A DNA stretch of 51,754 bases from Escherichia virus TH30: the sequence record MT446404.1. One strand, written 5' to 3'. The translations under genes were made by a program, and so were the position numbers. Positions 15,788 to 41,321 of the stretch are shown here, one piece after another (positions within the stretch are counted from its first letter, which is position 1; each line of letters begins with the position of its first letter). The notes beneath the pieces were generated by a model. It saw only the letters and a program-made list of their open reading frames with translations, was not told the origin of the DNA and searched no databases.

Positions 15788-16918
15788 TTACTTACGGAAG
15801 CGCGCCTGAGGATCAGGAATCGCGTCATCATCTTTGTCGCCTTGAGCGCCGTCAGCTTTATCGCCGTGCACTTTGATGCGTTGAGCAGCCATCTTATCAG
15901 AATCGCGAGCGATTTCATAAGACTGATTGATGTATGCGTCGGATTTTTCTTTCGCGTCAATACCGAGAACTTCGTCAATTACTGCCAGTTTGATAGCCTT
16001 CTCATCCAGGCCGTCGCACTTGATACCAAGGCCGGAAGCGAAAGTGAGAACAGCTCCCAGCGCGTCAGCTTTTTCTTTTGCTTCCGCTAGAGCCGCTTCG
16101 ATCTGGGCAGGAATGCCGTCAACCTTTGCTTTCAGCGCATCGCGCTCAGCTTGCAGGCCGTCAACTTTAGCACCAGCTTGCTCTGCTGCGGTTTGCAGCT
16201 TGCCGATGTGGTCAGCTACGTCTTTGGACACTTCCACTTCTGCTGAATCAATTTTAATTTTTACGGTCATGTTACTTTCCTCATTGGTTAATTGAACATG
16301 CTCATCATATTTAATTTCTTCTGAGCCGTCAAGGTTTAATCTGGCAATACCTGCGCGCCCGTGCTTTACCTTGGCAACGTGGTTAGGGACGATGTTCGTT
16401 TGCAGCACGTCAAACTCTTCCCACTCGTCGGTCATGACGGTTCCGTTAGGGAATTGCGCCTCCATCCCTTCCGCATCATCCTTGAAAACATACTCACCAG
16501 TATTGACATTTCCCCACCCTTCGCGGTGGATGTCATTAGTCTTGTAACCAACGGACAATTCTGCGGCGTCGCCACGCTTGGCGGATTCAATGGATTCCTT
16601 GTCGTGAATTACGATCGGACACTTCAAGCCGATTCCATCACGACGACCAGCGCCGGATAGTGAGCCAACAACAATCTTTCGTGCGTTGCTTGTGCTTACT
16701 TCCTGGTGACCTTCTACGATCGGCATACCGCGAAATAGCTCCATGGCCTCAGCCTTGAACACTTCGTTGGCTGGTCGGAACTCACGCTGCATTGTTCCAT
16801 CGGCACGCATATATTCCTGAATGCCGATTCGTGCAATGATTGGCTCATCGTGCATGAATCCGTTCGAGTCAAAGCGTGCTTTCAGTTGCACGCTATCGTA
16901 TCGTTGCTTAGTGGTCAT
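15788..16918 (-). CDS. scaffolding protein (possibly with prohead protease function, 376 aa)
   Basis: Ala/Glu/Lys-rich coiled-coil segment; upstream of capsid gene. Confidence 0.45.
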   Translation of the reverse strand: MTTKQRYDSVQLKARFDSNGFMHDEPIIARIGIQEYMRADGTMQREFRPANEVFKAEAMELFRGMPIVEGHQEVSTSNARKIVVGSLSGAGRRDGIGLKCPIVIHDKESIESAKRGDAAELSVGYKTNDIHREGWGNVNTGEYVFKDDAEGMEAQFPNGTVMTDEWEEFDVLQTNIVPNHVAKVKHGRAGIARLNLDGSEEIKYDEHVQLTNEESNMTVKIKIDSAEVEVSKDVADHIGKLQTAAEQAGAKVDGLQAERDALKAKVDGIPAQIEAALAEAKEKADALGAVLTFASGLGIKCDGLDEKAIKLAVIDEVLGIDAKEKSDAYINQSYEIARDSDKMAAQRIKVHGDKADGAQGDKDDDAIPDPQARFRK

Positions 16919-17397
16919 TTTTTACTCCCGTGATTTTTATGAAATTTATATACAGACTCCGCAACCTTTCTTGCAGAGATTGCGTCATCTTTTCTATCGT
17001 ATCTACCAAGGAATTTCTCCTTTTTGTCCACCCTTATTGAAGCAATCCATTTACTGGTTCTCTTACACCAGCTAACTCCAACAACTCCGCTTTTGTTTGA
17101 CTTGCTCATGGATACGTTTTTGCAATTCTCTTGTCTAGTTACGAGCCTTAGGTTTTCTATCCTGTTATCATCCCTAATATGGTTTATATGGTCAATCTCC
17201 ATTCCTTCAGGTATTTTACCATGGTGCATCTCCCATATTACCCTATGAGCCGGAGTTAGCCTACCCATAATCCTAACGTAAATATATCCATCCTCATCCT
17301 TCCAGCCAGCCACATCGCCAACTTTAACCCTTTTCGATGTCGGATTTTTCCAGATGAGATCTTTCTCTATATGATAAAAATAATCATTGAAATTCAT
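16915..17397 (-). CDS. HNH homing endonuclease (160 aa)
   Basis: EIDHINHIRDDNRIENLRLVTRQEN His-Asn-His motif; wedged between head genes with 4-nt overlaps. Confidence 0.85.
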   Translation of the reverse strand: MNFNDYFYHIEKDLIWKNPTSKRVKVGDVAGWKDEDGYIYVRIMGRLTPAHRVIWEMHHGKIPEGMEIDHINHIRDDNRIENLRLVTRQENCKNVSMSKSNKSGVVGVSWCKRTSKWIASIRVDKKEKFLGRYDRKDDAISARKVAESVYKFHKNHGSKK

Positions 17398-18164
17398 AGT
17401 TGATTCCCACTGCTATCAAATGATGGCACGGCCCAGCATCGGCAGCCGTAAGGCTCACCAGGGAACGGATGGTCACTTGAGATCTCAATACGTTTCCCTT
17501 CCCATTTTACGTGCTGCAATCGCTCGCGTTCATCCAGCTTACCATGCCAGAAGTAGTGAGTTACTCCCGCATCATCCAGGCGCTGGCGCATCAGTACGCT
17601 GTTCCATGTGGACACGATTCCACGTGAGCGATTCACGGTCCAGCCAGTATACACCTTGTAGCGCTGCTTTAAAACTTCATCAATCTGCTGACTGGTTTTA
17701 TTGCGCACGTTTTCGACGCGTAGGTTTTGCGACCAGTCAGAGATGATGTCGTTCGATAGCTTTAGAATGCTTGCCTCAGCCGAGCCTCGCCATTGCGATG
17801 ACTTCTCGCGATACCATGACTCATTAGCATTCGCCCCAAGCGCGCCAAGCAAGATCACAGACTGATTCTTTCCGCCGCCAGCTTTCTTTGCCACGCTGAG
17901 GAATTGCCTTGAGTTGAACTTGTAGATGGTCAAGGCCAGCGCCGGAAGTGTGGCAACAATCGCCGCGATAAGTCCTGCTGCGTATTCCTCAAGCTCACTT
18001 TCTGCATCATTGATTTCTTCGTCCGAAGCGTCAAATCTCATGCCGCCAGTAAGCGATCTGGCTTTCTTTGCCATCTCGCCAGCGAAGGTTGACAATGAGC
18101 GGCTAAGCTGCCGCTCGCTTGCTTCGGGGTAACTCCATTGATTTACAATGCCGTTAACCTTCAT
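17394..18164 (-). CDS. head morphogenesis protein (SPP1 gp7-like, 256 aa)
   Basis: Position immediately downstream of portal. Confidence 0.5.
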   Translation of the reverse strand: MKVNGIVNQWSYPEASERQLSRSLSTFAGEMAKKARSLTGGMRFDASDEEINDAESELEEYAAGLIAAIVATLPALALTIYKFNSRQFLSVAKKAGGGKNQSVILLGALGANANESWYREKSSQWRGSAEASILKLSNDIISDWSQNLRVENVRNKTSQQIDEVLKQRYKVYTGWTVNRSRGIVSTWNSVLMRQRLDDAGVTHYFWHGKLDERERLQHVKWEGKRIEISSDHPFPGEPYGCRCWAVPSFDSSGNQL

Positions 18165-18166
18165 GA

Positions 18167-19429
18167 TTATTCCTCGTTGTTCACCTGCGGGTTAGTTGGT
18201 TCGATTTCTTCAAGCTCCGGCGCTGGGCCTTGAATCTTGATAAAGTCTGCGATTGCCTCAAGTGTATCACGCGCCTCGTCACGGTCAATGACCTGCTCAG
18301 CCAACAGCTTCGAAAGCGAATCAACGTTATTCTTCAACGTCTCAGATTGCTCTTTCTCGCTTGGCATTGATAACGGCTCAAAGCGGACCGACCATTCTTC
18401 TTCCTGCACAATCATCGGAATTAACCACTCCAGAAGCGGCCTGTAATACTCGTTACGCTTGCGGTCAATCATCTTGTAGAAAGTCTCAAGCGCTGTATTC
18501 TGGCTCGCTGACACGCCGCCTACGTTCTTATTCTTGAGGATAATCTCATGAATCTGCGAGTAGTTTACGATGCGGTCCATCTTCTTATCAAGGAATGTAT
18601 CGACGCCGCCAATGTCAGAGTTAAGAACGTCGTATTCTTCGTCGGTGGCATCAATGCCAATCGTACGGCCTACGCCGCTATTGTCATCAACCTGAGCTAA
18701 TCGAAGTCGTGCCGCGTAACGCCCTTCGTCATCGTCGCACAAATCCGCCAGACCTTTAGCTTTCCATACGCCTTGTTGCTTACGGCGCAATAGCTGAGTC
18801 GCCAGTTCCTCACAGTAGTTGTAGTCCAGAATGGCATCAATCAAGCCCTTACTCAGTACAGATGCTCCCCAATCGTTATTCTGCGCGCGAAGTGAGCCAG
18901 GGACACGCTCGCCTCCGTTAACATAGATTCGCGTGTAGTGGACGTCGTATTCCGGTACGCTGCCGCCAGGGTTAATGGTGTAAATCTTCGGCATACCATA
19001 GCGAGGATTTCGTGCGTTCTTCTCGCGGTCCTTGATGCGGATCTGCTCTTTCTCGTACACGCGGATTGATTCAAGCTGCGCACCTTCCTTGATTGGTGAT
19101 GTTAGCAGGCGATTATCACGGACGACGGCGACGATAGCCGATCCACCATAAAGCCGTTCCCATGAGAACGCCTCAACGATCTGCTTATTCAGCTTCATGC
19201 CATCCCACAAAGATTTGAATGCTTTCTCATCCTTCACACCGTCAAGGCCGAATCCAGGGAAAACCATTTCTTCTGGGATTACATCAACAATCTTTTTAGC
19301 CATAGGATCATCAATGTAAAACTGCGTCACATACATCTGATCATATAGCGATGCAAGCGCGCCGCCTGCCGTGCCTTCACCCTTAAACGTCTTGTTGTAA
19401 GAGTCGGTCTTTACGCTTTTTTTACTCAT
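18167..19429 (-). CDS. portal protein (420 aa)
   Basis: Size, acidic C-terminus, position downstream of large terminase. Confidence 0.7.
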   Translation of the reverse strand: MSKKSVKTDSYNKTFKGEGTAGGALASLYDQMYVTQFYIDDPMAKKIVDVIPEEMVFPGFGLDGVKDEKAFKSLWDGMKLNKQIVEAFSWERLYGGSAIVAVVRDNRLLTSPIKEGAQLESIRVYEKEQIRIKDREKNARNPRYGMPKIYTINPGGSVPEYDVHYTRIYVNGGERVPGSLRAQNNDWGASVLSKGLIDAILDYNYCEELATQLLRRKQQGVWKAKGLADLCDDDEGRYAARLRLAQVDDNSGVGRTIGIDATDEEYDVLNSDIGGVDTFLDKKMDRIVNYSQIHEIILKNKNVGGVSASQNTALETFYKMIDRKRNEYYRPLLEWLIPMIVQEEEWSVRFEPLSMPSEKEQSETLKNNVDSLSKLLAEQVIDRDEARDTLEAIADFIKIQGPAPELEEIEPTNPQVNNEE

Positions 19430-19480
19430 CTGCTTTTCTCCAAATAAAAATGGCTAGGTTGTTAGCCTAGCCATTATACA

Positions 19481-21064
19481 TTATTTGCGCATTCCCGCTA
19501 ATCGTTTCATTCGAGCTACCGGATCATCAAGCAAGTTCATTTCGAAGTTGCCAGCATCAACCACGTTATCCACGATGTCATCGTGAGGATGGCTATCGTC
19601 AAAGGTGAATCCGACCAGTTCCGCCTCCATTTCAGTAAGCATTGGGTGTGATTCAGGAAACACGATTCGACCTGCCTTCATGATTGGTGCTGCGTCCATT
19701 GCGCGCGTAACCTTGTCGGTATCTCGCTGCACTGGCGTGATGTCAATCGGAAGCTTCTTGTTGATTGACTGAATCAGGCCCGTACCGCTTGCCTTGTCTT
19801 CAATGTAAACCTTGCGTAGTGACGTCTTGTTCTCCTTCGCCCACTTGAAGCAGTTTCCGTAAAAGTTAAGAGCCATCTTTTCAAGGTCCGGCGCTTCCCA
19901 CTTGCCGCGAATGCCGTCTATGAAATATACGCGATCCTTATACTTGCCCCACAAAACAAATACGCTGTAGTCGTGTATTTCCTCTGCTTTCTGCGCTGTA
20001 TCCGCAGTGGTGAACAGGTATTCGAAGCGTTCCGGTTTTGGCATGTTGGCTTTTTCACCGTCGCCGTAATACTGGAACCAGTCCGATTTGAACGCGTTAC
20101 CACCAAGCGCGATGGGCTTCTGCTGATACTGCGATTCAAACGTGTACAGGTCAGCTTCGCGCAACGCCAGTAGGCTTTCTGCGCTTTCCTTCGCGGGCCA
20201 GAAAGAGAAGTGTTCAACGCCGTCAATCATTACCGATGGGGAGGATAGCACGTCTCTGTCAAATTCCTCTTTCAACCAGTCAGGAAGCGTGTCTCTGTAT
20301 TCCTCAGTTACCAGCGCCGGAATGATTACCTGCTCAAACTTCATGCCGCCCATTCCGCCATTCATCAGGAACCATGTCGCGTCATTAACATGCAGTCTCT
20401 GCTGCACAACAACGCATGGCGTCTTGTCGTTCATCCTTCGAGATCGAACGGTATTCTTTAATAGCGTGTGACCAGCCTTCCTTTTCACTGCTGAGTATAA
20501 ATCTTTCGGCTTCTCAGGGTCATCAAGCGTCAACATGCCAGTGAATCCATCGTCCATATACCCGCCACGCTTACCAGTTACCTGGCCACCTATGGCGCGC
20601 GATGTTAACGTCAGCCACGCCTTGTCATTACTGTTTAGCGCTGTAATGTCTCCTCCTGAAGCTTTCGCTAGCTTGCAAGGCCATAACTCCTGGAACTCAT
20701 CAGATCCCAATATCTCTCGCGTCCTGATCCCGTTATCCTTCACTAGGCTGTCAGAGAATGAAAGGTTTAGGTTTCTTATCTTGCTACTGTGGAACATTCC
20801 GTAAACTGGCATGTGTATAGAAAATATCTCAGTTTTACCGGAGCCTGGAGTGATGTTGAATATGATGTTCTGTATCTCACCCTTAATGATCTGCTCAACC
20901 TTCCAGCAAAGGTAAGTGAAGTGCCAGTTAGATCTAAACTTCTGAGCCTGTATCAGTGCGAACCATATACGCATAAAGTCACTAAACGACCTTTCGCTCA
21001 TCACCTTTATTACCGCCTTTTCCTTTGGTGTCAGATCTTCCCAAATCAATATCTTGTTAGACAT
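19481..21064 (-). CDS. terminase large subunit (527 aa)
   Basis: Walker A-like TPGSGKTE near N-terminus; C-terminal acidic nuclease-like region. Confidence 0.8.
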   Translation of the reverse strand: MSNKILIWEDLTPKEKAVIKVMSERSFSDFMRIWFALIQAQKFRSNWHFTYLCWKVEQIIKGEIQNIIFNITPGSGKTEIFSIHMPVYGMFHSSKIRNLNLSFSDSLVKDNGIRTREILGSDEFQELWPCKLAKASGGDITALNSNDKAWLTLTSRAIGGQVTGKRGGYMDDGFTGMLTLDDPEKPKDLYSAVKRKAGHTLLKNTVRSRRMNDKTPCVVVQQRLHVNDATWFLMNGGMGGMKFEQVIIPALVTEEYRDTLPDWLKEEFDRDVLSSPSVMIDGVEHFSFWPAKESAESLLALREADLYTFESQYQQKPIALGGNAFKSDWFQYYGDGEKANMPKPERFEYLFTTADTAQKAEEIHDYSVFVLWGKYKDRVYFIDGIRGKWEAPDLEKMALNFYGNCFKWAKENKTSLRKVYIEDKASGTGLIQSINKKLPIDITPVQRDTDKVTRAMDAAPIMKAGRIVFPESHPMLTEMEAELVGFTFDDSHPHDDIVDNVVDAGNFEMNLLDDPVARMKRLAGMRK

Positions 21065-21123
21065 AGCAAAAACCCCTAAACATTAATTGTCAGGGGTTAT
21101 TTTATCCACATAGTCAGATTTTA

Positions 21124-21642
21124 TCAAATCTTATCAAGTACGCTTTTCACGGCATCCTCTATGGTTTGCGTGTCATTCACAACATTGCTCACGTTAACTT
21201 CTGCTGCCTTGTCGATACCAATGTCTTTACCTACGAATCCAGCATTGATGAGGTTGGACGCGGCAAGCTGATATTTCTGTTCAATGATTACCGAGTCGAT
21301 GAACTCCATTACCTCAGAGAATCCAGGTGACGCTCGCCAGCTTTGGATCGCACCGGAGGTAACGCCGCAATAAAGCTGGAATCCGTTGAGCGTGAACACT
21401 CGCGGCTTGTGCACAAGGTTTTCAGTTACGACGCCCTGGAAGCTCGCCGTCTCAATGGCCTTGATTGCCTGGTCCTCGGCCCATGAGAAATATTTAACCG
21501 CAAGGTTGAATACAGTCTCAGGCGTCATTGGGTGACGATGGTTAAGGTTGGCAATGTCGCCATACTTTTTGTTGTATAGCTCTTTGAAGTTACCGATTCG
21601 AACCTTCTCGTTCGCGTGACTGGTGAAATTTTCGTCTTTCAT
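21124..21642 (-). CDS. terminase small subunit (172 aa)
   Basis: Position directly upstream of large terminase. Confidence 0.45.
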   Translation of the reverse strand: MKDENFTSHANEKVRIGNFKELYNKKYGDIANLNHRHPMTPETVFNLAVKYFSWAEDQAIKAIETASFQGVVTENLVHKPRVFTLNGFQLYCGVTSGAIQSWRASPGFSEVMEFIDSVIIEQKYQLAASNLINAGFVGKDIGIDKAAEVNVSNVVNDTQTIEDAVKSVLDKI

Positions 21643-21671
21643 AGTTGTTTCCCCTTGTTGAATAGGAATGA

Positions 21672-21680
21672 ATTATACCA
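21672..21680 (-). promoter_or_regulatory. extended -10 promoter TGGTATAAT upstream of small terminase gene
   Basis: Plus-strand attatacca, about 30 nt upstream of the ATG at 21642. Confidence 0.5.
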
Positions 21681-21691
21681 GATTGCAGGCA

Positions 21692-21716
21692 TAAAAAAAG
21701 CACCCCGAAGGATGCT
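21692..21716 (-). terminator. rho-independent terminator (minus strand, G-U containing stem)
   Basis: GCATCC-ttcg-GGGTGC on the minus transcript followed by U7. Confidence 0.55.
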
Positions 21717-21724
21717 TAAATGAA

Positions 21725-21946
21725 TCAGTCAACGTATTTGATGGCCCCAGGCTTCCGCCCCGATCGAATATCGTTAATCTCGTTAAACACTGAGATGAAC
21801 TTACCGGATACTCGCCACTGCTTTTTCTTCTCATCGTATCGCGCTTGTGCGAATTGTCCGCGCTTGATTAGCTTAGCTACCCAGGCGCAAGATAACGAAA
21901 TGATCAGGACGGAAGCGAACAGAAAACCATAAATAAACGTCAGCAT
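21725..21946 (-). CDS. small membrane protein (73 aa)
   Basis: N-terminal hydrophobic helix, basic C-terminus. Confidence 0.4.
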   Translation of the reverse strand: MLTFIYGFLFASVLIISLSCAWVAKLIKRGQFAQARYDEKKKQWRVSGKFISVFNEINDIRSGRKPGAIKYVD

Positions 21947-22137
21947 TGAATACCCCTTACATAATTAACTAAAAATTTATGAGTCGTTGTATCGACTCCG
22001 CTCATTTGCTTCACCTTTGAAACGGCTTCTTCGGCACTAATGGCCTCAACCTTTGCTTCAAAGTTTTGCTTACACGATGCGCATGTGCGCCCCATTAGCA
22101 AGATAGTTAGCTTGACCTCAAACATATCAAACCTCAT
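21940..22137 (-). CDS. hypothetical protein (65 aa) with CxxC pair
   Basis: ORF only. Confidence 0.3.
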   Translation of the reverse strand: MRFDMFEVKLTILLMGRTCASCKQNFEAKVEAISAEEAVSKVKQMSGVDTTTHKFLVNYVRGIQC

Positions 22138-22310
22138 TGTTAGGTCCGGTTACGGAGTCCGGAAGGCTTTCACAATGCCTCGATTGTATTGCGACTTACA
22201 CTTTGCTTTTGGCGATGCGCTATTTCAATTTGCGGCTTACGAACCGCTCGTTGCCACTTGGTGGCCTCGTCTGTTTACGAGATTAAAGATACCAGTCAGT
22301 GGGATTGCTG

Positions 22311-22505: not shown

Positions 22506-22737
22506 AGATACTTTCCCCATTTTCACGCTTGCCAACCAGCCCCTTAAGATAACCAGCAATCCACACAAATTTGTCGCGAGATATGATGGTCGCTACGGCC
22601 TCATGGTGCTTGGTAATAATTGAGGCAACCAGCTTGTCATCTTTGCGCTCTTTCTTGCTCAGGTCGGAATACGCTGCGTTTAATTGCTTGGCCTTGGCCT
22701 TTACTGCGTTCATCTGCGGATCGGTTAATCCAAACAT
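22498..22737 (-). CDS. hypothetical basic protein (79 aa)
   Basis: ORF only. Confidence 0.35.
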   Translation of the reverse strand: MFGLTDPQMNAVKAKAKQLNAAYSDLSKKERKDDKLVASIITKHHEAVATIISRDKFVWIAGYLKGLVGKRENGESIYE

Positions 22738-23272: not shown

Positions 23273-23329
23273 TTCTGCTTCCTCGTTCGTTTCGATGGGG
23301 TAACTATACAGCTACCCCGATTATGAGTT

Positions 23330-23346
23330 TTAACAAAAAGTGCTAT
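23330..23346 (-). promoter_or_regulatory. conserved 17-bp motif (minus-strand ATAGCACTTTTTGTTAA); upstream stop TAG embedded
   Basis: Followed on the minus strand by a hairpin with TATAGT and CATCGAAACGA before the next ATG. Confidence 0.55.
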
Positions 23347-23957: not shown

Positions 23958-23958
23958 T

Positions 23959-24608: not shown

Positions 24609-24657
24609 TTTTATATTCCTGAGTAGTGGGCGCGATGTGCGCCCGTTAAGGTTAGTT

Positions 24658-25275
24658 TTATTTACCGCTTACGAGATTGCATTTTTTGCACTGGCGAACA
24701 CCATGCGGAGGTAGCGGCTCGCTAAATTCGTGCTCGCAAACTTTTTCTACGCCGTGAGACTTAAGGGCGGAGTGCACGTTATCGCCATAGTCGCACACCT
24801 GATAGGTAGTGATTCCGAGGCTTCGGAAGTGAGCGATAACATTCGGGCTATCATCCCACGCTGCGGTGATGCGGTGCAAGCCAATGTATCGTAAAAACTC
24901 TTCCTTGATGATCGTATCCTTTCGGTTATCATCAGCCTGGCGCATGACCAGAACGTTATATTTAGCGCCAGCATCATGCAGCCATTGCGTTGATTCCTCA
25001 ACAACATCATCAGATCGACCAGTGAGTACGATAATGAAAGCGCCGGAAGCGAATAGGCTATTCATTACGTCAATCGTTTCCTGGAATGGCTGATCGAACT
25101 TGCTCAATGAGTTAAATTCAAGCCATGACTCAGTGAGGTGCAAATCCTTGGTCGGTAGCTTGTGCAGGCGGTGCGATCCGTCCGACAGAGTACCATCGAA
25201 ATCAAATATGTAAACTTTCTTGTTTACCGCTTCCGTTTGAAGGTGATGCTTAATCATGGTGTAAAGCTGATTCAT
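24658..25275 (-). CDS. HAD-superfamily phosphatase (polynucleotide 3-phosphatase-like, 205 aa)
   Basis: HAD motif I IFDFDGTL; C-terminal Cys/His cluster. Confidence 0.55.
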   Translation of the reverse strand: MNQLYTMIKHHLQTEAVNKKVYIFDFDGTLSDGSHRLHKLPTKDLHLTESWLEFNSLSKFDQPFQETIDVMNSLFASGAFIIVLTGRSDDVVEESTQWLHDAGAKYNVLVMRQADDNRKDTIIKEEFLRYIGLHRITAAWDDSPNVIAHFRSLGITTYQVCDYGDNVHSALKSHGVEKVCEHEFSEPLPPHGVRQCKKCNLVSGK

Positions 25276-32846: not shown

Positions 32847-32890
32847 CTATTATTACTCCATCGAAACGAAGCAATCACGGAGACACAAAA

Positions 32891-33196
32891 ATGATTAACA
32901 TGAACCTTTTCACTAAAGCTGACCACGAAAATATGCAAGCGCTGGCAGACCTTTTCGCCTCCGCCGAAATGGCTGAGATGTTCATGACTGAGAATGAGTT
33001 CCGTGATGGCATCAGTAACTCAATCGAAACTAATTTCGGTGATGCTCGTATCACTGGCGCGATGTTCGCAAACGTTGCTCGTAAATTCTTCCAGTCATTC
33101 CGCGACGCTCGCCACGCAAAAGGCGCTTTCCGCTCCTCGATGGATACTGCTGAAGAGATTAATGCATACATCGAACGCAATAGCACGAATTGCTAA
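32891..33196 (+). CDS. hypothetical acidic protein (101 aa)
   Basis: ORF; last codons NSTNC-stop lie inside the next motif. Confidence 0.4.
   Translation: MINMNLFTKADHENMQALADLFASAEMAEMFMTENEFRDGISNSIETNFGDARITGAMFANVARKFFQSFRDARHAKGAFRSSMDTAEEINAYIERNSTNC
33180..33196 (+). promoter_or_regulatory. conserved 17-bp motif ATAGCACGAATTGCTAA overlapping the 3-prime end of the upstream gene
   Basis: Followed by TATAGT and CATCGAAACGAAACGA. Confidence 0.55.
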
Positions 33197-33262
33197 ACCT
33201 CAATGCCAAGGATGGCGTATAGTTACTTCATCGAAACGAAACGAGCACACCGGAGATAAAAA

Positions 33263-33502
33263 ATGAGCATCCAGGCCACTAAAACAGAAAAGCGTCTCTT
33301 CACTAAGCCTGGTTCAAAAGGCGTTGAGATGATGTTGGTAAACGGTATCGTGTTTAATAACTGCGGCAATGTTCGCGTAGGAAACAAATATACCTGGCTG
33401 AGAACTCTCCTTACTGAAGATAGCCTCAATGCAATGATCATTAACGGTACATTAATTGAAGTCCAGGACGACTGGAAGTTTTACACAGCAAAGCAGCACT
33501 AA
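33263..33502 (+). CDS. hypothetical protein (79 aa)
   Basis: ORF with RBS GGAG. Confidence 0.4.
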   Translation: MSIQATKTEKRLFTKPGSKGVEMMLVNGIVFNNCGNVRVGNKYTWLRTLLTEDSLNAMIINGTLIEVQDDWKFYTAKQH

Positions 33503-33556
33503 TAAATTATATCGCCGCCGGACGACATCCGGCATAAATCAAATGAGGAAGTAAAA

Positions 33557-33781: not shown

Positions 33782-33783
33782 CA

Positions 33784-33999: not shown

Positions 34000-34008
34000 G
34001 GTGAGATC

Positions 34009-34248
34009 ATGAAAGTAAAATGCACTAACGTAATCACCAGCACCGACAAGAAAGTTTTGACACCGTTCGTAAAAGGCTCTGTATACTACGCTGAGCCGCT
34101 AATCATTAACGGCAAGGTAATCCCGAACGAATGGTTAATTAATGGCGCCGAGCGACCGCACAAGCACGATACGGGGTGGATTGCCATTGCTGCGTGGCCC
34201 AGCGGATTTACCATCATCGGCATCGCAACGTTTGACGAGGTGAAATAA
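34009..34248 (+). CDS. hypothetical protein (79 aa)
   Basis: ORF with RBS GGTGAGA. Confidence 0.4.
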   Translation: MKVKCTNVITSTDKKVLTPFVKGSVYYAEPLIINGKVIPNEWLINGAERPHKHDTGWIAIAAWPSGFTIIGIATFDEVK

Positions 34249-34406: not shown

Positions 34407-35086
34407 AAAAGGTAATTTACTGCTTGTTCGACGGTTCCGGTATCGCTGGTCTACCATGGGCGGAAAATGGTCACACCGTCTACTGCTTCAACGCGGACTC
34501 TGGTAATCATGGAGAATATCACATCAAGATGCAGCATGAGAATATCCACTACGTCAACATGTGGATTGACAAGGATTTCATCACCAAGTGCGAATTGCTC
34601 GGCCTGCCTCCGGCGCAAATGGTTATCGGCTTCCCTGATTGCACGCTGTTCTCTCAGTCAGGATCGCAGCATGAGCGCGGGGAAGATGAACTGGCGTACG
34701 CCCTGGCAAATGCGAAGCTCGTCGAAGAAGTCGGTAATCACTTCCAGGCACCATGGATGGTTGAGAATCCGGTAGGTAAGCTGTCAAGCCTGTGGCGTAA
34801 GCCTGACTTCTACTTCAATCCGTATGAGTACGGCGGGCTAATGAAGGCTCACGATCTACCGTACCACGAAAAAATGCCTAAATACGACGGCTACACGAAG
34901 AAAACTTGCATCTGGCATGGCAACGGATTCGTTGAGCCGGTTAAGAAGCCTGGCCCGATTAACATTGGCTTCTTTTGGGGATGGAAATTCCTCGGAGGGA
35001 AGTCTGCTAAGACAAAGCAGTTGCGCTCACTGACTCCACGTGGATTTGCGCGCGCCGTATACCTGGCGAATCATTTAACCAAATAG
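34403..35086 (+). CDS. compact DNA cytosine-C5 methyltransferase-like protein (227 aa)
   Basis: LFDGSGIAG (motif I FxGxG-like), GFPDCTLFSQSG (motif IV PC-like with Cys), ENPVGKL (motif VI ENV-like). Confidence 0.5.
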   Translation: MKKVIYCLFDGSGIAGLPWAENGHTVYCFNADSGNHGEYHIKMQHENIHYVNMWIDKDFITKCELLGLPPAQMVIGFPDCTLFSQSGSQHERGEDELAYALANAKLVEEVGNHFQAPWMVENPVGKLSSLWRKPDFYFNPYEYGGLMKAHDLPYHEKMPKYDGYTKKTCIWHGNGFVEPVKKPGPINIGFFWGWKFLGGKSAKTKQLRSLTPRGFARAVYLANHLTK

Positions 35087-35099
35087 CACTAATTGCTAA
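35083..35099 (+). promoter_or_regulatory. conserved 17-bp motif ATAGCACTAATTGCTAA, upstream stop TAG embedded
   Basis: Followed by terminator-like hairpin and CATCTCATCGAAACGAAAC. Confidence 0.55.
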
Positions 35100-35100
35100 A

Positions 35101-35118
35101 GCCCTTCGGGGCTTTTCC
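35101..35118 (+). terminator. hairpin AGCCC-ttcg-GGGCT plus T-run
   Basis: Read from sequence. Confidence 0.5.
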
Positions 35119-35164
35119 TGTATATTCATCTCATCGAAACGAAACACACTAAAGGAAAATAATC

Positions 35165-35518
35165 ATGGCTACCACACTTACGAAAAACTTCGTCACCTCC
35201 GACAACCGCCTTCTGAAAGCTCGCGTGAAAGATGAAGTAGAGCAAATCAAGGTTGATGGCAAGTGGGTTAACCTTGACATCAAGGGCCGTTACATCAAGA
35301 CTAAAACCCTTTACGTGACTAAGATTAACCACAAGTCTTCCGTTAAAAAAGACTTCACGCAAGGTAAGCGCTATCAGGTTGACATGCACGCCGGACTCGG
35401 TAGTAACGCTGGTTACATCTTCGATAACGACGGCGTAGCATGGCAGTTGTACCGCTCGGATGACGTCGGATTCGAAACAGTATGCGGAACATACCGATTT
35501 GAGGCTGCGTATAAATAA
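35165..35518 (+). CDS. hypothetical protein (117 aa)
   Basis: ORF with RBS AAGGAAA. Confidence 0.45.
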   Translation: MATTLTKNFVTSDNRLLKARVKDEVEQIKVDGKWVNLDIKGRYIKTKTLYVTKINHKSSVKKDFTQGKRYQVDMHAGLGSNAGYIFDNDGVAWQLYRSDDVGFETVCGTYRFEAAYK

Positions 35519-35588
35519 GTAGCATTTTTTGGCAAGCGGTTTTACCATAGGTGCGTTAACATTAGCGCACCAACTAAGGAGTTTTTTA

Positions 35589-37172
35589 ATGTTTGATTTT
35601 AACGAAGATAAACTGTCAATCGATCAGGTAATGGCTGTAGCCGCTGCCGACAACCTGCCGCCTCTGCGCGTTGCCATTAATGCGAACGGGTACAGGCAGA
35701 GCCAGTCATTCTGGAAAGCCCCAACCGAAATTGACTCAGGCGGTGACAAATATCCGGTAATCTCACTTGGTAACGATTATGATGTCGTTGGTAAACTTTC
35801 AAGCAACGCCGCCCGTTCTGTTCAGTTCCCTGAGTCGTCCGCATACATGCATTTCCTAGGATGCATATCAGCCGCCATGCTGGGCCGATTTACGGTTGAG
35901 TATCACGGAACACAACAGCCTACCGCGCTGTACGTCGTAACCAGTCAGCCACCATCGACAGGTAAGTCAGCCATCAACTCACTTTCGCTGGCCCCGATGA
36001 TCGCAGAAACTGAGCGACTAAACGAAATCCGAAAGCGTGACCGCAAGAAGATTATGGCTAAGCTTTCCGCTCTATCCAAGGAGATGAAGCAGGAGAAATC
36101 ACCGTCCGACATGGCGGCGCTGTTTGAGGAAAAAGAAGAACTGGAGGAAAAACTGGAACGGCTTTGTGACATCGTGTTCCCCGTATCCGATACCACGCCG
36201 GAAGGTCTTGCGCGAATCAACAACCGACAGGGCAACTTCTCTGTGATCTCGGATGAAGCAACGAGCGTAAACTCACTGTTAGGCATGACCTATGGTGACG
36301 GCTCAAAGAAAACGAACAGCGAGCTTGTGCTTAAGGCATGGGATGCTGGTAACGTATCTATCGCGCGTGCGAACGCAGACAATAACATGAGCTTTATTGC
36401 GATGGGGTGCATATCTGTAATTGCACAGGATGAAACAATCAACGCGATCATGAACGCCGGCGCGCGCGGTATCGGTGTATCCGAGCGTTTCTTGCTTGTG
36501 CGAGAGAAGTCATTCCTTGGCGAGCGTGTATTCGTCGATGAGAAAGGTGAATCAACATACGAGCCGATTGATGGCGGACTCAAGGCGGACTACTTCCGTT
36601 TGGTTCATGAGATCATGAGCGAACACGAAGTAAACCTGACAGTAAGCACGTCGGCGATGAAATATCTCAACCGTGCTCGTCAGGATATGGAGCCTCACCT
36701 TGCTGACGGCGGGAAGTATTCACACACAATGCTGCGCGGCGCGCTTGGTAAGTTCGATAAGCAGGCAATCAGGATTGCTGCGGTTCTTCACACTGTGCGT
36801 AACTGGTTCAATCCAAACGGCGGCAGCCCGCAGAAGTCCAGAGAGATTGAACTTGATACAATGCAAGAAGCCGTGATCATGTTCCAGGAACTCAGTAAAA
36901 CTTATCTGTCATCTGCCAACGCTGCTGGTCACGCTGGCGACCATGCGGAGATGAACAAGCTGATTGACATACTGATCAAGCAAGGCAAGAACGGGAAAGG
37001 CGTTGTAGGTGTCCGATCCCTATATGAAGCGGCGCGTAAGGTTAAGCCATTTGAGGGCCAGGCTGGCGTAATGACTCGCATCAAAGACCACCTGATCCCT
37101 ATGCTGGATGAGAAAAACTATACGTGCCTTATTGGTGATAAAATTTACATTAATCCGCGGCTGCTGGGGTAA
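35589..37172 (+). CDS. P-loop NTPase of unknown function (527 aa from ATG at 35589), possibly replication-associated
   Basis: AGGAG RBS 8 nt before ATG 35589; Walker A-like QPPSTGKSA; termini shared with 29504..30055. Confidence 0.5.
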   Translation: MFDFNEDKLSIDQVMAVAAADNLPPLRVAINANGYRQSQSFWKAPTEIDSGGDKYPVISLGNDYDVVGKLSSNAARSVQFPESSAYMHFLGCISAAMLGRFTVEYHGTQQPTALYVVTSQPPSTGKSAINSLSLAPMIAETERLNEIRKRDRKKIMAKLSALSKEMKQEKSPSDMAALFEEKEELEEKLERLCDIVFPVSDTTPEGLARINNRQGNFSVISDEATSVNSLLGMTYGDGSKKTNSELVLKAWDAGNVSIARANADNNMSFIAMGCISVIAQDETINAIMNAGARGIGVSERFLLVREKSFLGERVFVDEKGESTYEPIDGGLKADYFRLVHEIMSEHEVNLTVSTSAMKYLNRARQDMEPHLADGGKYSHTMLRGALGKFDKQAIRIAAVLHTVRNWFNPNGGSPQKSREIELDTMQEAVIMFQELSKTYLSSANAAGHAGDHAEMNKLIDILIKQGKNGKGVVGVRSLYEAARKVKPFEGQAGVMTRIKDHLIPMLDEKNYTCLIGDKIYINPRLLG

Positions 37173-37175
37173 ATT

Positions 37176-37550
37176 ATGTTTCTTCTGGATCTGTACCGTT
37201 TTTGCGAAGGCTATGAAAAATTCAACCGTCAGCACCTGGCGGTATTCATATACAAGCACAGGGAGTGTGAGCGACTGGCTAAGGCCGCAGGCGTTACTCC
37301 TCGCTATTTCGCGTCATCAGCCTCAAAGGAGTTCATTGCAAGATGTATGGTCGAAGGATACATTAACGGGGTGAACAACTGGTACTGGTCCAATGGGGCG
37401 CAAAAGAGGCCATTTGAATTTCATTTCAAGTGCTATGGCGGTGAGAACGATCGCTATACATGGGAGATGATGAACATAGAGAAGATGAGCGATAATGAGT
37501 TATTCGGAAAGCCAGGTTGTAATCGACGCGATAATCAGATGCAGTTCTGA
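37176..37550 (+). CDS. hypothetical protein (124 aa)
   Basis: ORF. Confidence 0.4.
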   Translation: MFLLDLYRFCEGYEKFNRQHLAVFIYKHRECERLAKAAGVTPRYFASSASKEFIARCMVEGYINGVNNWYWSNGAQKRPFEFHFKCYGGENDRYTWEMMNIEKMSDNELFGKPGCNRRDNQMQF

Positions 37551-37687
37551 GAATGGGATTAGCGAGGACGGGCTTAACCAAGCCCTTCTTTCAATGCTTA
37601 ACTCATCCATGCGCGCCGGACGACGTGATGAGCATACTCTATGCAATAATGAAGGTGAATTATTGCTGCTGGTGCAAAGATTTGGAT

Positions 37688-37720
37688 AAAAAAGGGAGCC
37701 TTTCGGCTCCTTTTATTTTT
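37688..37720. terminator. bidirectional terminator between rightward early block and lysis cassette
   Basis: A-run, GGAGCC-tttc-GGCTCC, T-run. Confidence 0.65.
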
Positions 37721-38099
37721 TGCGTCGTTCCAGCCAGATTGAAAGAGCAATCATCACAATGCCGATGAACAGGAATACCAGTCCGGCAATCAGATTACCT
37801 TTCGAGTCATCGTTCCTGATCTCAATCTTATCAGCGATGATGGTGTCAGCCTTGATGCTTGAGGTGCTGACAGACTTCCCGTTTGACGTATCAACCTTTC
37901 CTACCTTTGAATCTTTTATAGTGGTGTCGTTGTCGTTTGACTTATCCACCTTTCCGGTAACGCCTACCGTTTGCTTCACGTTCTCGGCACCAGCCTGTGC
38001 GCTAATTTCTGGCTTACTGCCAATTAAACCAGTCAGCGCCGAAGTGGCTGAACAACCTGAAAGCATAATCACTGCCGCGATCACAATTCCCTTAAGCAT
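37713..38099 (-). CDS. unimolecular spanin-like protein (lipoprotein with C-terminal transmembrane helix, 128 aa)
   Basis: Lipobox LSGC at N-terminus and hydrophobic helix LIAGLVFLFIGIVMIALSIW then RRKK; last gene of lysis cassette. Confidence 0.6.
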   Translation of the reverse strand: MLKGIVIAAVIMLSGCSATSALTGLIGSKPEISAQAGAENVKQTVGVTGKVDKSNDNDTTIKDSKVGKVDTSNGKSVSTSSIKADTIIADKIEIRNDDSKGNLIAGLVFLFIGIVMIALSIWLERRKK

Positions 38100-38563
38100 A
38101 GTTCTATCTCCGCGTTGCGCCTGTTAACCAGGCCTTTGCTAACAACCTTCTTGCCATTTACCGTAATTTTATTCCACATAGAGAACGCCTCACAACCTCC
38201 GCGAATATCACCACGATTCATACGCCTGATAGTTGTTGAGTTCCTCATCGCGTTAGTGCCGATATTATAGCTAAGAGAGTATAGTGCGGCTCTGGTGCTC
38301 ACTGGAACATCAACTTTTAGGGCTTTATCAACAGCTGCCCTGTGAATAGATAGGTGCTTAATCAGAAGTGAGTCGCACTCACTCTGAGTGTACACCTTGC
38401 CGAGAATAACGTCAGGTCCAGTAATCCCCTGGCATACTGTCCACACCCCCGCAACATCCTTGTATGGCCTGTACTCAACACCTTCATGCTCATTTAGGAA
38501 TGGAACAGCTAGCGCTACAGCTCCCGCCACAGCGCCACCAATAATCTTGTTCTTTATACTCAT
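38081..38563 (-). CDS. SAR endolysin (phage lysozyme fold with N-terminal signal-anchor-release helix, 160 aa)
   Basis: N-terminal Gly/Ala-rich weakly hydrophobic helix KIIGGAVAGAVALAVPF followed by EGVEYRPYKDVAGVWTVCQGITG catalytic-type region. Confidence 0.75.
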   Translation of the reverse strand: MSIKNKIIGGAVAGAVALAVPFLNEHEGVEYRPYKDVAGVWTVCQGITGPDVILGKVYTQSECDSLLIKHLSIHRAAVDKALKVDVPVSTRAALYSLSYNIGTNAMRNSTTIRRMNRGDIRGGCEAFSMWNKITVNGKKVVSKGLVNRRNAEIELCLREL

Positions 38564-38565
38564 TA

Positions 38566-38781
38566 TTATTTACTCCTGATCCTCATTGCTTCACGGAGAT
38601 CACCATCCTCAAGGGCTTTATGTAGTGCCCTGCTATCACGCCAGCGAAGCCATGCCCCGAAGATACCAAAGCACACAGCTATTACTAAGCCGATAATGCC
38701 GATTATTGTATTGTCAGATAAGCCGCCACCCATAGCTACTCCGCTACCGGATAAGGCGGCTGCGTCATAGAAATGTTTCAT
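38566..38781 (-). CDS. holin, probably pinholin class (71 aa)
   Basis: Two hydrophobic helices and charged C-terminus; directly upstream of SAR endolysin. Confidence 0.6.
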   Translation of the reverse strand: MKHFYDAAALSGSGVAMGGGLSDNTIIGIIGLVIAVCFGIFGAWLRWRDSRALHKALEDGDLREAMRIRSK

Positions 38782-38811
38782 GTTGCGGCCTCGTTAAGTT
38801 GATTTGTTTAA

Positions 38812-38820
38812 ATAATACCA
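38812..38820 (-). promoter_or_regulatory. extended -10 promoter TGGTATTAT upstream of holin
   Basis: Plus-strand ataatacca about 30 nt upstream of holin ATG. Confidence 0.45.
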
Positions 38821-38895
38821 GATATTACTCCTTGACATAAACGAAAAAAGGCGACCTTAAAGGCCACCTCTTTGTAACTTCATGTTTTTTATAAT

Positions 38896-39069
38896 TTAGT
38901 CTTCTATAATGAATTCCACCAAAGCACCATCAATCGGCGCAAAAATCCACGTCATATCGTCACCATAAATCTTGTAGTATCCGTCACCCTGATACTCACC
39001 GCTGTATGGACTGTTGACAGTGAAAGGAAGTGTCTTAGATGTATTCTTAATGCAAAACAATTTAACCAT
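38896..39069 (-). CDS. possible 57-aa protein (MVKLFCIKNTSKTLPF...)
   Basis: Below ORF-track cut-off; AGAGGA RBS 7 nt upstream. Confidence 0.35.
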   Translation of the reverse strand: MVKLFCIKNTSKTLPFTVNSPYSGEYQGDGYYKIYGDDMTWIFAPIDGALVEFIIED

Positions 39070-39123
39070 GATTAAATCCTCTGATAGTGAGATGTAAATA
39101 TAGCGCCAATCGGCGCCACATGT

Positions 39124-39140
39124 TAGGCAAAAAGTGCTAT
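39124..39140 (-). promoter_or_regulatory. variant conserved motif (ATAGCACTTTTTGCCTA)
   Basis: Immediately after HNH gene stop. Confidence 0.4.
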
Positions 39141-39141
39141 T

Positions 39142-39618
39142 TCAAGATCCGTGACTTCGATGGAATCCATGAATCTTTTCAGCATCCTTTCTTGCTATCA
39201 AAGCGTCATCGAACGAATCTCCATAATAAAGGATCTTTGTTTTTCCATTTATTTTTATCTGCGCTATCCATTTATTTTTCATATTGTTCCAAGCAACACC
39301 AACAGTTCCGCTCGTGTTTGTTGATGGCTTACGCTTGTTCCTGTTGTTGATTAACCTTGTAACCATTCTTAGGTTTTCAATTCTATCATCACCAGGAACG
39401 TGATTTATATGATCTATCTCCATACCATCTGGTATAGTGCCGTTGTGCATCTCCCATACGATTCTATGTCTTGGCGTAATTGTGTCATATCTACGGATAT
39501 ACCAATAACCCCTATGATGCCTACTCCCAGCTTCATCACCAGGCTTCAATCTTGTGCAGTGAGGGTCCTTCCAAAATACCCGTCCATCTTTATAGTATAA
39601 GAAATCATTCCAATTCAT
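39142..39618 (-). CDS. HNH homing endonuclease (158 aa)
   Basis: EIDHINHVPGDDRIENLRMVTR motif; paralogue of 16915..17397 and 40836..41321. Confidence 0.85.
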   Translation of the reverse strand: MNWNDFLYYKDGRVFWKDPHCTRLKPGDEAGSRHHRGYWYIRRYDTITPRHRIVWEMHNGTIPDGMEIDHINHVPGDDRIENLRMVTRLINNRNKRKPSTNTSGTVGVAWNNMKNKWIAQIKINGKTKILYYGDSFDDALIARKDAEKIHGFHRSHGS

Positions 39619-39672
39619 CTAATCATCCTCTCGTTTCTATAAAACAATAATAGCGCCATATAGGCGCTATGT

Positions 39673-39689
39673 TTTAACAAAAAGTGCTA
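39673..39689 (-). promoter_or_regulatory. conserved 17-bp motif (ATAGCACTTTTTGTTAA)
   Basis: One nt after TGA stop of 39690..40832; followed by hairpin. Confidence 0.5.
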
Positions 39690-40832
39690 TCAAATATCAC
39701 TCATCTCTGGACGGTAAACGAATCGACCAACCTCACCGAACTCTTTTGAGTACACGATTACAGCTGCTTGGCGATACGATCTCCAACCACCACGGGCCGC
39801 ATATGCGTCTTTTGCTCCTAGTTGGCCGTGAACCTCATCAATCCCCAAAGTTCCTTCCGTGATCGTCTGATGGTGCCAATGGCCACTATGCGTGTAAATA
39901 TATTTGCTCGTACCAAACTCTTCGCGGAAGTCAGTAGCCATTGCCGCCAGTCGAGTATCTGCTTTCTTCATGGTGTGACCATGAGTGTACCCCAGCAATG
40001 TCTTACCCCACTTGGTACGGTGAAGAATCATAGGAGACGTATCAACCGTTACGCGCACCTCATCTTCAAAGTATGCCGCCATTGCAGCGCGGAGCCAAAT
40101 CATACCCGCCTGATCATGATTCCCTTCAATGATCTGGATTTCGACCTCTTCGTGCTTATCCAGCATTAGCGCCACCGCGCGGCGTACGGAACGGATTGCA
40201 ACGTGAACTAGCTTGGCGTATCGACTATCCTGATCCAGTACGTGACCGCTTGCAGGCGTCACTGCGTCCAGGCCATCAGAGTGAAGGAAGTCACCGCCGA
40301 TTAGCAGAACTGCTTTCTTAGCCTTCGGTGATACGCCTACGGAATAATCAAAGAAGTTTTTCAGCACTTTCTCTGAGATGTCGGTGCTGTAGTTCTCACC
40401 GCATTCATGCTTGTGGGCCATCGCGCCAATATGAAGATCGAATACAGGATAGAGCGCCAGGAGATTTTCATCATAGCTAGGCTCGCCAAGGATAGGCTGA
40501 GCCGCCGCGCGCGGGAGTTCGTCACAGAATGCTTCAATTGCAGCATCCATCATGGCGGCTAACTTTTCCTTGTCCTGATCGGTCTTAATCCAGCGGATTT
40601 TCTCGTTGCCTTCCGCGTCAATCATAGTTGATGTGGCCTTAACCATGAAGCCGTCAGGCACATATTTAGCAACTGCTTTATTGCCATGCCCGTGACCTTT
40701 ACGAGCAAGGTTACTTGAGCGCTGCTCAACTGTACGAATGTTCATCCCGTATTCTTGGGCGATTTGACGAAGTGTTTTACCAGCTTCGCGCTCAGCAATG
40801 AATTGTTCGTCACTAATCTTCTGCATAGCCAT
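39690..40832 (-). CDS. HTH-domain plus calcineurin-like metallophosphoesterase (380 aa)
   Basis: N-terminal HTH-like LRQIAQEYGMNIRTVEQR; GDFLHSD and GNHD metal-binding motifs. Confidence 0.55.
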   Translation of the reverse strand: MAMQKISDEQFIAEREAGKTLRQIAQEYGMNIRTVEQRSSNLARKGHGHGNKAVAKYVPDGFMVKATSTMIDAEGNEKIRWIKTDQDKEKLAAMMDAAIEAFCDELPRAAAQPILGEPSYDENLLALYPVFDLHIGAMAHKHECGENYSTDISEKVLKNFFDYSVGVSPKAKKAVLLIGGDFLHSDGLDAVTPASGHVLDQDSRYAKLVHVAIRSVRRAVALMLDKHEEVEIQIIEGNHDQAGMIWLRAAMAAYFEDEVRVTVDTSPMILHRTKWGKTLLGYTHGHTMKKADTRLAAMATDFREEFGTSKYIYTHSGHWHHQTITEGTLGIDEVHGQLGAKDAYAARGGWRSYRQAAVIVYSKEFGEVGRFVYRPEMSDI

Positions 40833-40835
40833 TTT

Positions 40836-41321
40836 TTATTCTCCGTGATTCTTGTGAAATTTAAATTTTCTTTGAAATTGCATTCTACACAATTTCGCTT
40901 CTTCTATCGAGTTAAAGTAACCAAGATGCATTAACTTTCCGTCAACCTTTATCCTTGCGCAATACTTTGATAGCGGCTTGTGCCACGACACGCCCGTAAC
41001 TCCGGTTGAATTATCAATTCGTATCGACTGGTTTCTTCCGTTTTCCTTTCTTGTGACAAGCCTGAGGTTAGATATGCTGTTATTGCTCCTGTCATGGTCT
41101 ATATGGTCTATCTCCATTCCATTAGGAATTTCACCGTTATGTATATACCATACAACAATATGAACCCTATAGTTTTTCTTGTTAAACATCATTTGCCAGT
41201 ATCCAGTCACTTTACTGGCGCAACCGCACTTGCTTCCAACCTTTATCTTTTTACTCTTTGATTTCTTCCATACTAAATGAAGTTCATCATCATACTCTAC
41301 AAAATCAATAAGCTCATTCAC
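40836..41321 (-). CDS. HNH homing endonuclease (161 aa)
   Basis: EIDHIDHDRSNNSISNLRLVTRKEN motif. Confidence 0.85.
   Translation of the reverse strand: MNELIDFVEYDDELHLVWKKSKSKKIKVGSKCGCASKVTGYWQMMFNKKNYRVHIVVWYIHNGEIPNGMEIDHIDHDRSNNSISNLRLVTRKENGRNQSIRIDNSTGVTGVSWHKPLSKYCARIKVDGKLMHLGYFNSIEEAKLCRMQFQRKFKFHKNHGE

Follow-up and report, generated by a model that had tools for sequence, protein, structure and literature searches.

I-HmuI is an intron-encoded HNH homing endonuclease of Bacillus phage SPO1. Here we describe three related genes, named HNH1, HNH2 and HNH3, in Escherichia virus TH30 (sequence record MT446404.1; the whole stretch of 51,754 nucleotides (nt) is hereafter called the window), and we propose, based on sequence comparison and structural modelling, that they are very probably freestanding I-HmuI-like HNH(N)-AP2 homing endonuclease genes of three lineages, each specific for one site in Drexlerviridae genomes. 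HNN-AP2 endonucleases have been reported in phages T1, Rtp and T5 (multiple copies) and in the Xanthomonas phages Xp10, OP1 and Xop411 (PMC2248197), and Magnani et al. 2004, as cited in PMC2248197 and PMC10448857, treats HNN/HNH-AP2 endonucleases. As freestanding HNH(N)-AP2 endonucleases are already described in T1-like and other phages, the three genes extend a known class. Such genes have been noted in T1-like phages since the T1 and Rtp genomes, the orthologs of HNH1 and HNH3 are already annotated as HNH/AP2 in GenBank, and the current understanding of the class is unchanged. In the literature, we found no paper on a pattern such as the one described below in Drexlerviridae.

Like the HNN-AP2 phage endonucleases, the three proteins carry a nuclease followed by AP2, with the boxes DNR, NLR and EN and without CxxC dyads, and like them they are present in multiple dispersed copies, at locations that vary between related phages (PMC2248197). 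In the Xanthomonas phages insertion was concluded to be sequence-independent or random (PMC2248197), whereas the lineages described here each keep to a single site across genera. In the lactococcal Skunavirus phages, I-HmuI-like HNH genes vary in number and location among close phages, cluster by insertion location, have been shown experimentally to cause marker exclusion and have been proposed as drivers of genome diversification (PMC12724721); our case differs in host and phage family, and the Drexlerviridae lineages are known here from sequence alone. Freestanding Seg/Mob genes of T4-like phages, such as mobE (PMC2988022, PMC2790892), and the "homing endonuclease gene (HEG) islands" of ICP1-like phages (PMC10448857) share with the genes described here their position as intergenic cassettes beside essential genes, at boundaries of genetic exchange, and also, as we infer for our genes, the capacity to mobilise themselves and adjoining DNA through gene conversion. 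The Seg proteins of T4 are GIY-YIG enzymes and the ICP1 IPA-HNH domains are too divergent for Pfam HNH_3 (PMC10448857), whereas the three proteins of the window are canonical HNH_3 members.

An earlier note, made from the letters of the window, had pointed to three open reading frames (ORFs) of this kind, and all three are present where it placed them, on the minus strand:

16915..17397, minus strand: HNH1, 160 amino acids, ATG start; Pfam HNH_3 E = 4e-24; overlaps both neighbours by ATGA
39142..39618, minus strand: HNH2, 158 amino acids, ATG start; Pfam HNH_3 E = 1.3e-19
40836..41321, minus strand: HNH3, 161 amino acids, GTG start; Pfam HNH_3 E = 1.9e-22; weak Pfam AP2 match

A tblastn search of the three proteins against the window returned exactly three copies. 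The Pfam HNH_3 (PF13392) scores are 84.4 bits for HNH1, 69.9 for HNH2 and 79.1 for HNH3, with a gathering cut-off of 24.8, and each protein also matches PHROG 99, "HNH endonuclease" (E = 1e-59 to 1e-64). HNH2 and HNH3 are, respectively, 50% and 45% identical to HNH1, and the three-way alignment contains 50 invariant columns. The note had also described a shared core motif running from WEMH through ENLR to VTRxEN; HNH1 fits this reading exactly and the other two only approximately, as HNH2 reads VTRLIN at the position of the final xEN, and HNH3 has VVWYIH for WEMH and SNLR for ENLR. The conserved boxes DNR, NLR and (E/I)N match those of the HNN-AP2 endonucleases (PMC2248197), and paired CxxC motifs are absent from the sequences of HNH1, HNH2 and HNH3, placing them among the zinc-free "HNN"-AP2 endonucleases.

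When a profile of the three proteins was searched against the PDB, the sole match was I-HmuI (1U3E; E = 5e-6), with the D-H...N...N residues aligned. The predicted architecture is I-HmuI-like, with an N-terminal beta-hairpin DNA-contact region and a zinc-free H-N-N beta-beta-alpha-metal site, at a sequence identity of about 23% and a comparable size (174 amino acids in I-HmuI, 158-161 here). Unlike I-HmuI, which lies inside a group I intron of a DNA polymerase gene, the genes described here are freestanding between genes. All three proteins retain the catalytic D-H, N and N. Across 96 aligned homologs (HNH1 numbering), H51, D69, H70 and N82 never vary, and N91 is kept in at least 90%. HNH1 was modelled with AlphaFold2 (mean pLDDT 88.7); the model shows N-terminal beta-hairpins, a beta-beta-alpha core (strands 66-70 and 83-87, helix 88-92) and a C-terminal unit of three strands (108-111, 116-123, 126-133) and a helix (136-149). 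By sequence and model, the core has the beta-beta-alpha-metal fold with a general-base histidine and metal-ligand aspartate and asparagine, the metal site itself being a prediction.

The C-terminal part, modelled in HNH1 as an AP2-type beta3-alpha unit, differs from the helical modules of I-HmuI. Foldseek comparison of the HNH1 model with the PDB placed I-HmuI first, followed by the AP2/ERF domains of TEM1, WRI1 (WRINKLED1), AtERF1 and ApiAP2. The AP2 probabilities ranged from 0.6 to 1.0 (TEM1 and AtERF1 1.00, WRI1 0.97-1.00, ApiAP2 0.60-0.82), with modest E-values of 0.016-0.12 (0.52 for a second ApiAP2 chain). The template modelling (TM) scores were 0.45-0.67 by target, with WRI1 at just 0.28-0.29; the superposition on AtERF1 (1GCC) gave a TM score of 0.67 and a root-mean-square deviation of 1.8 A over 53 residues. 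At the sequence level, Pfam AP2 is matched by HNH3 only and below threshold (18.1 bits, cut-off 33.3), and several homologs carry precomputed PF00847 together with PF13392. At the level of the modelled fold, the C-terminal unit is an AP2-type DNA-binding domain, a three-stranded sheet on a helix.

The window phage belongs to the genus Nouzillyvirus of the Drexlerviridae (T1-like coliphages), and its closest records, among them CJ19, TH21, TH27 and 50EP, align over 70-86% of the window, with 84-90% identity. We compared the window with 13 related Nouzillyvirus genomes, 14 genomes in all. HNH1 has orthologs (at least 90% amino acid identity) in four of the 13 relatives, CJ19, ESCO41, TH21 and BUCT-XGG-1, and its site is empty in the other nine; HNH3 has an ortholog in P818 only (1/13, 91% amino acid identity) and HNH2 in none (0/13), and the empty sites are clean. 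The close relatives, in other words, do not all carry identical HNH genes at identical positions, which the note had named as the pattern that would speak against mobility. Its proposal of selfish mobile insertions that differ between related phages is supported by patchy presence, precise junctions, recurrent sites, a transfer tract and the I-HmuI-like fold. An exact-protein look-up of HNH2 in public assemblies returned a single match, which is the same phage and does not extend the distribution data: the public assembly of SRA run SRR11772968 (a 51,357-bp contig) is 100% identical to 35142..43618 of the window (8.5 kb), indicating that this phage was present in that run.

The three sites belong to a larger set. 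In the 14 genomes we counted 39 such genes at 16 sites, with 1-6 genes per genome, and 13 sites that are empty in the window hold homologous HNH_3 genes in at least one Nouzillyvirus relative:

6580, 19481-19493, 21056-21068, 22509-22550, 24611-24778, 34006-34013, 35017-35087: approximate junctions, empty in the window and occupied in relatives
37104-37176, 38060-38355, 43161-43444, 43505-43917, 46590-46649, 50249-50272: the remaining approximate junctions of this kind

The portal/terminase junction is occupied in 6 of the 13 relatives and the regulator/primase junction in 4; some sites hold several unrelated lineages, such as the helicase/VRR-NUC junction, occupied by divergent lineages in 5. 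Identity follows the site: for 43 genes at the 16 sites, pairs at the same site have a median identity of 76%, while pairs at different sites have a median of 42.5% and a maximum of 55%, and the nearest neighbour is a gene at the same site for 31 of 37 genes. The earlier note had called HNH1, HNH2 and HNH3 paralogues. They are indeed homologous, but this split by site, together with relatives found at the same sites in other genera, argues for three old site-specific lineages rather than recent duplicates made within this genome.

The junctions at sites 1-3 are precise to a few bases, and the ORFs flanking the cassettes are complete and lie contiguous in empty-site genomes. In 24 of the 43 genes a downstream ORF starts within -12 to +25 nt of the endonuclease stop, and in 21 of these 24 a Shine-Dalgarno (SD)-like tetramer lies inside the endonuclease coding sequence, usually in its conserved ...NHG codons. 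The design of the cassettes spares the genes around them, with HNH1 and HNH3 translationally spliced into operons and HNH2 placed behind its own copy of a promoter-type module, so that the three cassettes represent three distinct wirings into host expression.

HNH1 (site 1) lies, as the note had it, between the scaffold and head-morphogenesis genes with overlaps of 4 nt, the sequence being ATGA at both ends:

17394..18164, minus strand: head-morphogenesis gene (Mu F / SPP1 gp7-like), upstream of HNH1; PHROG 324 E = 5e-67, weak Phage_Mu_F match
15788..16918, minus strand: scaffold / head-maturation protease gene, downstream of HNH1; PHROG 530 E = 4e-98, DUF2213
16926..17424, minus strand: HNH1 cassette relative to empty-site relatives, including an alternative head-morphogenesis 3' end and the SD of the protease gene

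Homology to TH27, PH1062, 50EP and P818 ends at 16925 and begins again at 17425/17431. In between, the empty genomes hold 42-48 nt, which encode a C-terminus ending in DFSTSKQSQLIT before the stop and carry their own SD, and in these relatives the protease gene follows directly on the head-morphogenesis gene. The last ~10 codons of the head-morphogenesis gene read SFDSSGNQL before the stop when HNH1 is present, and DFSTSKQSQLIT or DFTTANGKSS in empty genomes. HNH1 is freestanding and swaps these last ~10 codons of the upstream gene without interrupting that gene. Its own final codons, CAC GGG AGT AAA AAA TGA, supply the scaffold/protease gene with its SD and overlap with the ATG of that gene. 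Occupancy and relatedness of the flanks do not go together: the flanks of the empty genomes TH27 and PH1062 match the window at 93-94% identity, those of the occupied ESCO41 at only 84-86%. Homologs of HNH1 at ~79-81% amino acid identity are present in dozens of Klebsiella Webervirus genomes; in the one whose context we inspected, the HNH1-like gene has the head-morphogenesis gene on one side and the head-maturation protease gene on the other, and the overlaps are the same.

HNH2 and HNH3 were described in the earlier note as bracketing a gene, and they do so, HNH2 downstream and HNH3 upstream of ORF 39690..40832. The putative labels for this ORF, metallophosphoesterase and helix-turn-helix, are based on motifs seen by eye and on the annotations of relatives; a Pfam search gave no match at E <= 0.01, and PHROG 704 gave "DNA repair exonuclease". 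The features of this region are:

39690..40832, minus strand: DNA repair exonuclease / phosphoesterase-like gene; PHROG 704 E = 1.5e-153
39143..39649, minus strand: HNH2 cassette, the extra DNA compared with empty-site relatives: the ORF together with its upstream leader and SD
39619..39689, minus strand: private promoter-type module upstream of HNH2, with TAGCACTTTTTGTTAAA, a GC hairpin (ATAGCGCC/GGCGCTAT), TATTAT, leader and SD
39097..39139, minus strand: resident copy of the promoter module, before the DUF7244/holin genes; the sole copy in empty-site relatives
40837..41325, minus strand: HNH3 cassette, a 489-bp insert; junctions defined with PH1062, 50EP, CJ19 and ETEP102 (empty) and P818 (occupied)

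At site 2, the relatives align up to 39140/39142 and again from 39650, and ~42 bp of their sequence matches both sides. The alleles of the window are new, above all that of HNH2, for which no match in the phage collection exceeds 70% identity. The nearest homologs of HNH2, at 64-70% amino acid identity, are found in other subfamilies, in ACG-M12 and SCS31 (Guelphvirus) and in C119, AKS96 and AHP42 (Rogunavirus), and in the two contexts inspected, C119 (Rogunavirinae) and ACG-M12 (Braunvirinae), the HNH2-like gene lies immediately downstream of the same exonuclease gene. At exactly this site TH27 carries a different HNH_3 gene (44399..44881, ~40% amino acid identity to HNH2), in which the normally conserved NLRxVTRxxN box reads NLECKPRRDN; this gene could be a copy of diverged specificity or a decaying one.

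A diverged direct repeat of ~45 bp surrounds HNH2. We considered whether it is a target-site duplication and rejected this, as the repeat consists of two copies of the promoter-type module; HNH2 therefore closes a transcription unit and is preceded by a promoter copy of its own. The module, of ~70 nt, is present in 19 copies in the window, where 0.24 are expected, and always lies on the local coding strand:

23329, 23958, 26218, 27257, 27514, 28321, 29490, 39123, 39673, 42173, 43487, 46078, 47632, 50236, minus strand: copies of the module
31228, 31634, 32811, 33181, 35084, plus strand: copies of the module

Its layout is TAGCAC-N3-TTG(C/T)TAAA, a stretch of ~20 nt, in many copies able to fold into a GC-rich hairpin with a T-run, then a TATAGT/TATTAT box, a leader containing CGAAACGA (also given as CATCGAAACGA), an SD and the ATG. 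In the HNH2 copy, the hairpin and T-run also score as terminator-like (39670..39650), and the combination of hairpin and T-run suggests from the sequence a combined terminator/promoter unit that may punctuate the early and middle genes. The module was also considered as a target of the endonucleases and rejected: 4 of 16 cassette sites abut a copy, which is no enrichment since ~19 of ~80 gene junctions carry one. A sigma-70 promoter scan around sites 2 and 3 likewise gave no enrichment, with 6 sites where 7.4 are expected.

At site 3, the HNH3 insert takes the place of 2 nt ("AC") between the SD (TAAGGA) and the ATG of the exonuclease gene. The GTG start of HNH3 sits behind the old SD of the exonuclease gene, and the last codons of HNH3, CAC GGA GAA TAA, supply a new GGAG for that gene. 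After the P818 ortholog, the next relatives of HNH3 are at 59% and include Henu8 (Hanrivervirus, Tempevirinae), in which the HNH3-like gene directly precedes that exonuclease gene. The exonuclease gene of the window is 70-88% identical to those of the relatives and falls into two allele classes, at ~84-88% and ~70%; in the adjacent 41326..42100, 11 of the 12 separately aligned relatives reach 92-95% identity and ETEP102 87.5%. The divergence of the exonuclease gene may reflect recombination boundaries, or escape of target sites, around the cassettes.

Two further observations concern this site. An unlisted ORF of 23 codons (41332..41403, minus strand; MRCLIPVLLPPLIGFIIIYLLTR) overlaps by 1 nt the stop of the upstream 83-amino-acid gene, and its own stop overlaps the SD of HNH3. 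It is strongly hydrophobic and conserved in all six relatives examined at site 3 (PH1062, 50EP, CJ19, ETEP102, P818 and XT34), suggesting that it may encode a small membrane peptide. The empty site 3 of XT34 shows a tandem duplication of ~227 bp (42481..42709), which we considered as a repair scar and rejected: ~99 N lie between contig ends that are 100% identical, and this run of N in a "partial genome" record makes the apparent duplication an assembly artefact.

In the homing model, these cassettes would spread during co-infection with a cassette-free relative. The C-terminal AP2-fold domain and the N-terminal beta-hairpins would recognise and bind a particular sequence at the empty site or close to it, and the zinc-free beta-beta-alpha-metal site (D69/H70, N82 and N91 in HNH1 numbering) would nick or cut the DNA there. 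The break would then be repaired by the recombination functions of the phage (the annotations of relatives for the homologous region list a RecE-like exonuclease (exonuclease VIII), an Erf annealing protein and SSB), with the cassette-bearing genome as template, so that the cassette and a few hundred bases of flank would be copied. Occupied alleles would be immune because the insertion splits or rewrites the target. Homing itself, that is, cleavage of the empty allele, the identity of the target, immunity and super-Mendelian inheritance, is in this way predicted from the sequences.

Traces of one such event may be visible at site 1:

16866..17693: segment centred on HNH1 in which the window and BUCT-XGG-1 diverge little; 828 bp with 13 differences (1.6%), flanked by ~6% on either side

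In 800-bp windows along the comparison with BUCT-XGG-1, 2 of 289 are at 2% divergence or less, both over HNH1, and the genome median is 7.6%. A similar tract at HNH1 is found between CJ19 and TH21, where it is one of 12 of 324 windows at 2% or less, and HNH3 has no comparable low-divergence tract. The sequence of the HNH1 tract suggests a recent transfer of the cassette with a few hundred bases of co-converted flank. Orthologous pairs show ratios of nonsynonymous to synonymous divergence (dN/dS) of 0.06-0.23, indicating that the proteins are maintained by purifying selection.

Several observations weigh against frequent homing. Among 12 genomes, no flank variants are fixed with the presence of HNH1 beyond ~10 bp of the junctions, so that apart from the two pairwise tracts there is no population-wide signature of co-conversion. 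Synonymous divergence (dS) between HNH1 orthologs is 0.35-0.6, and for HNH3 of the window and P818 it reaches 0.85 beside a flank that is 94% identical; most alleles are at least as diverged at synonymous positions as their flanks, a pattern that long residence with recombination of the flanks would explain no worse than frequent ongoing homing. Any one absence could have arisen by precise loss, and since mosaicism in phages has many causes, one tract of low divergence is no more than suggestive. I-HmuI, moreover, is a nickase, and the route from a nick to homing of freestanding genes is unsettled.

These same data bear on a reading that we consider rather unlikely, namely that the three genes are vertically inherited accessory nucleases which are no longer mobile, their patchiness coming from old insertion, deletion and mosaic recombination, and which are kept for another role, such as damage to the DNA of competing phages or of the host, or AP2-mediated regulation of neighbouring genes. 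The orthologous alleles are old (dS 0.35-0.85) and yet under purifying selection, no linked flank variants are fixed, and HNH2 has a promoter module of its own, as would be expected of an independently useful gene. Such immobility is difficult to reconcile with the same lineage standing at the same site across subfamilies whose flanks are ~67-78% identical or not alignable, with 16 sites in one genus of which several have been hit by unrelated lineages, with the near-identity tract centred on HNH1, and with empty sites that carry intact alternative gene ends and SDs instead of deletion scars.

HNH1 lies in the head-assembly operon and is coupled in translation to the head-morphogenesis and scaffold/protease genes, which raises another explanation. 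In HK97-type phages, packaging HNH proteins are conserved, encoded beside the terminase and required for packaging, and HNH1 resembles them in being small and encoded in the head/packaging block; it might then be a packaging or morphogenesis accessory like the terminase-assisting HNH proteins of HK97-like phages, and not selfish. We give this explanation hardly any credence: HNH1 is dispensable in nine of the 13 viable relatives, which lack it, lies between the head-morphogenesis and protease genes and not next to the terminase genes, and belongs to a different Pfam family (PF13392), with an AP2-fold DNA-binding domain and an I-HmuI-like sequence shared with two paralogues outside the head module. 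A last alternative sees in the proteins former homing endonucleases that have lost nuclease activity and act as AP2-type DNA-binding regulators; it draws on the AP2 fold as a sequence-specific DNA-binding domain and on homing endonucleases that double as repressors (I-TevI, as cited in PMC10448857). It is very unlikely given that the catalytic D-H, N and N are intact in all three proteins and (nearly) invariant across the 96 homologs, and that purifying selection acts over the whole protein. Freestanding, site-specific homing endonuclease genes remain our preferred explanation.

Apart from the cassettes, three segments of the window (394-1976, 32872-33541 and 47973-48991) are without counterpart in any of the 13 relatives. 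The first contains three ORFs after the tail J-like gene (455..763, 773..1423 and 1498..1836, the last with a signal-peptide-like N-terminus), the second two small early ORFs, and the third corresponds to the C-terminal two-thirds of the tail-fibre gene 47674..48993. We considered whether they hold further nucleases and rejected this, as by eye, with no search for domains made, their ORFs are tail-fibre parts, tail-associated or small early ORFs; these window-specific segments probably serve host-range or exclusion functions.

The cassettes may also be more than passengers. Bracketed by two independent lineages and markedly divergent, the exonuclease gene may be the cargo of a "HEG island" driven through the Drexlerviridae, with the ...NHG codons co-opted as a built-in SD; we advance this extended proposal tentatively and regard it as possible but doubtful. 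If it were true, the built-in SD would let a cassette invade the gap between SD and ATG of any operon gene without polar cost, which would amount to a general design rule for operon-neutral homing cassettes and to a measurable driver of mosaic boundaries in T1-like phages.

The case offers three lineages with empty-site alleles in sequenced relatives, and one apparently recent transfer tract of ~0.8 kb. Homing cassettes inflate the apparent differences in gene content between near-identical phages and can bias the inheritance of markers in phage crosses or cocktails. As hot spots of gene conversion in co-infection, they would set mosaic boundaries in therapeutic and environmental T1-like coliphages.

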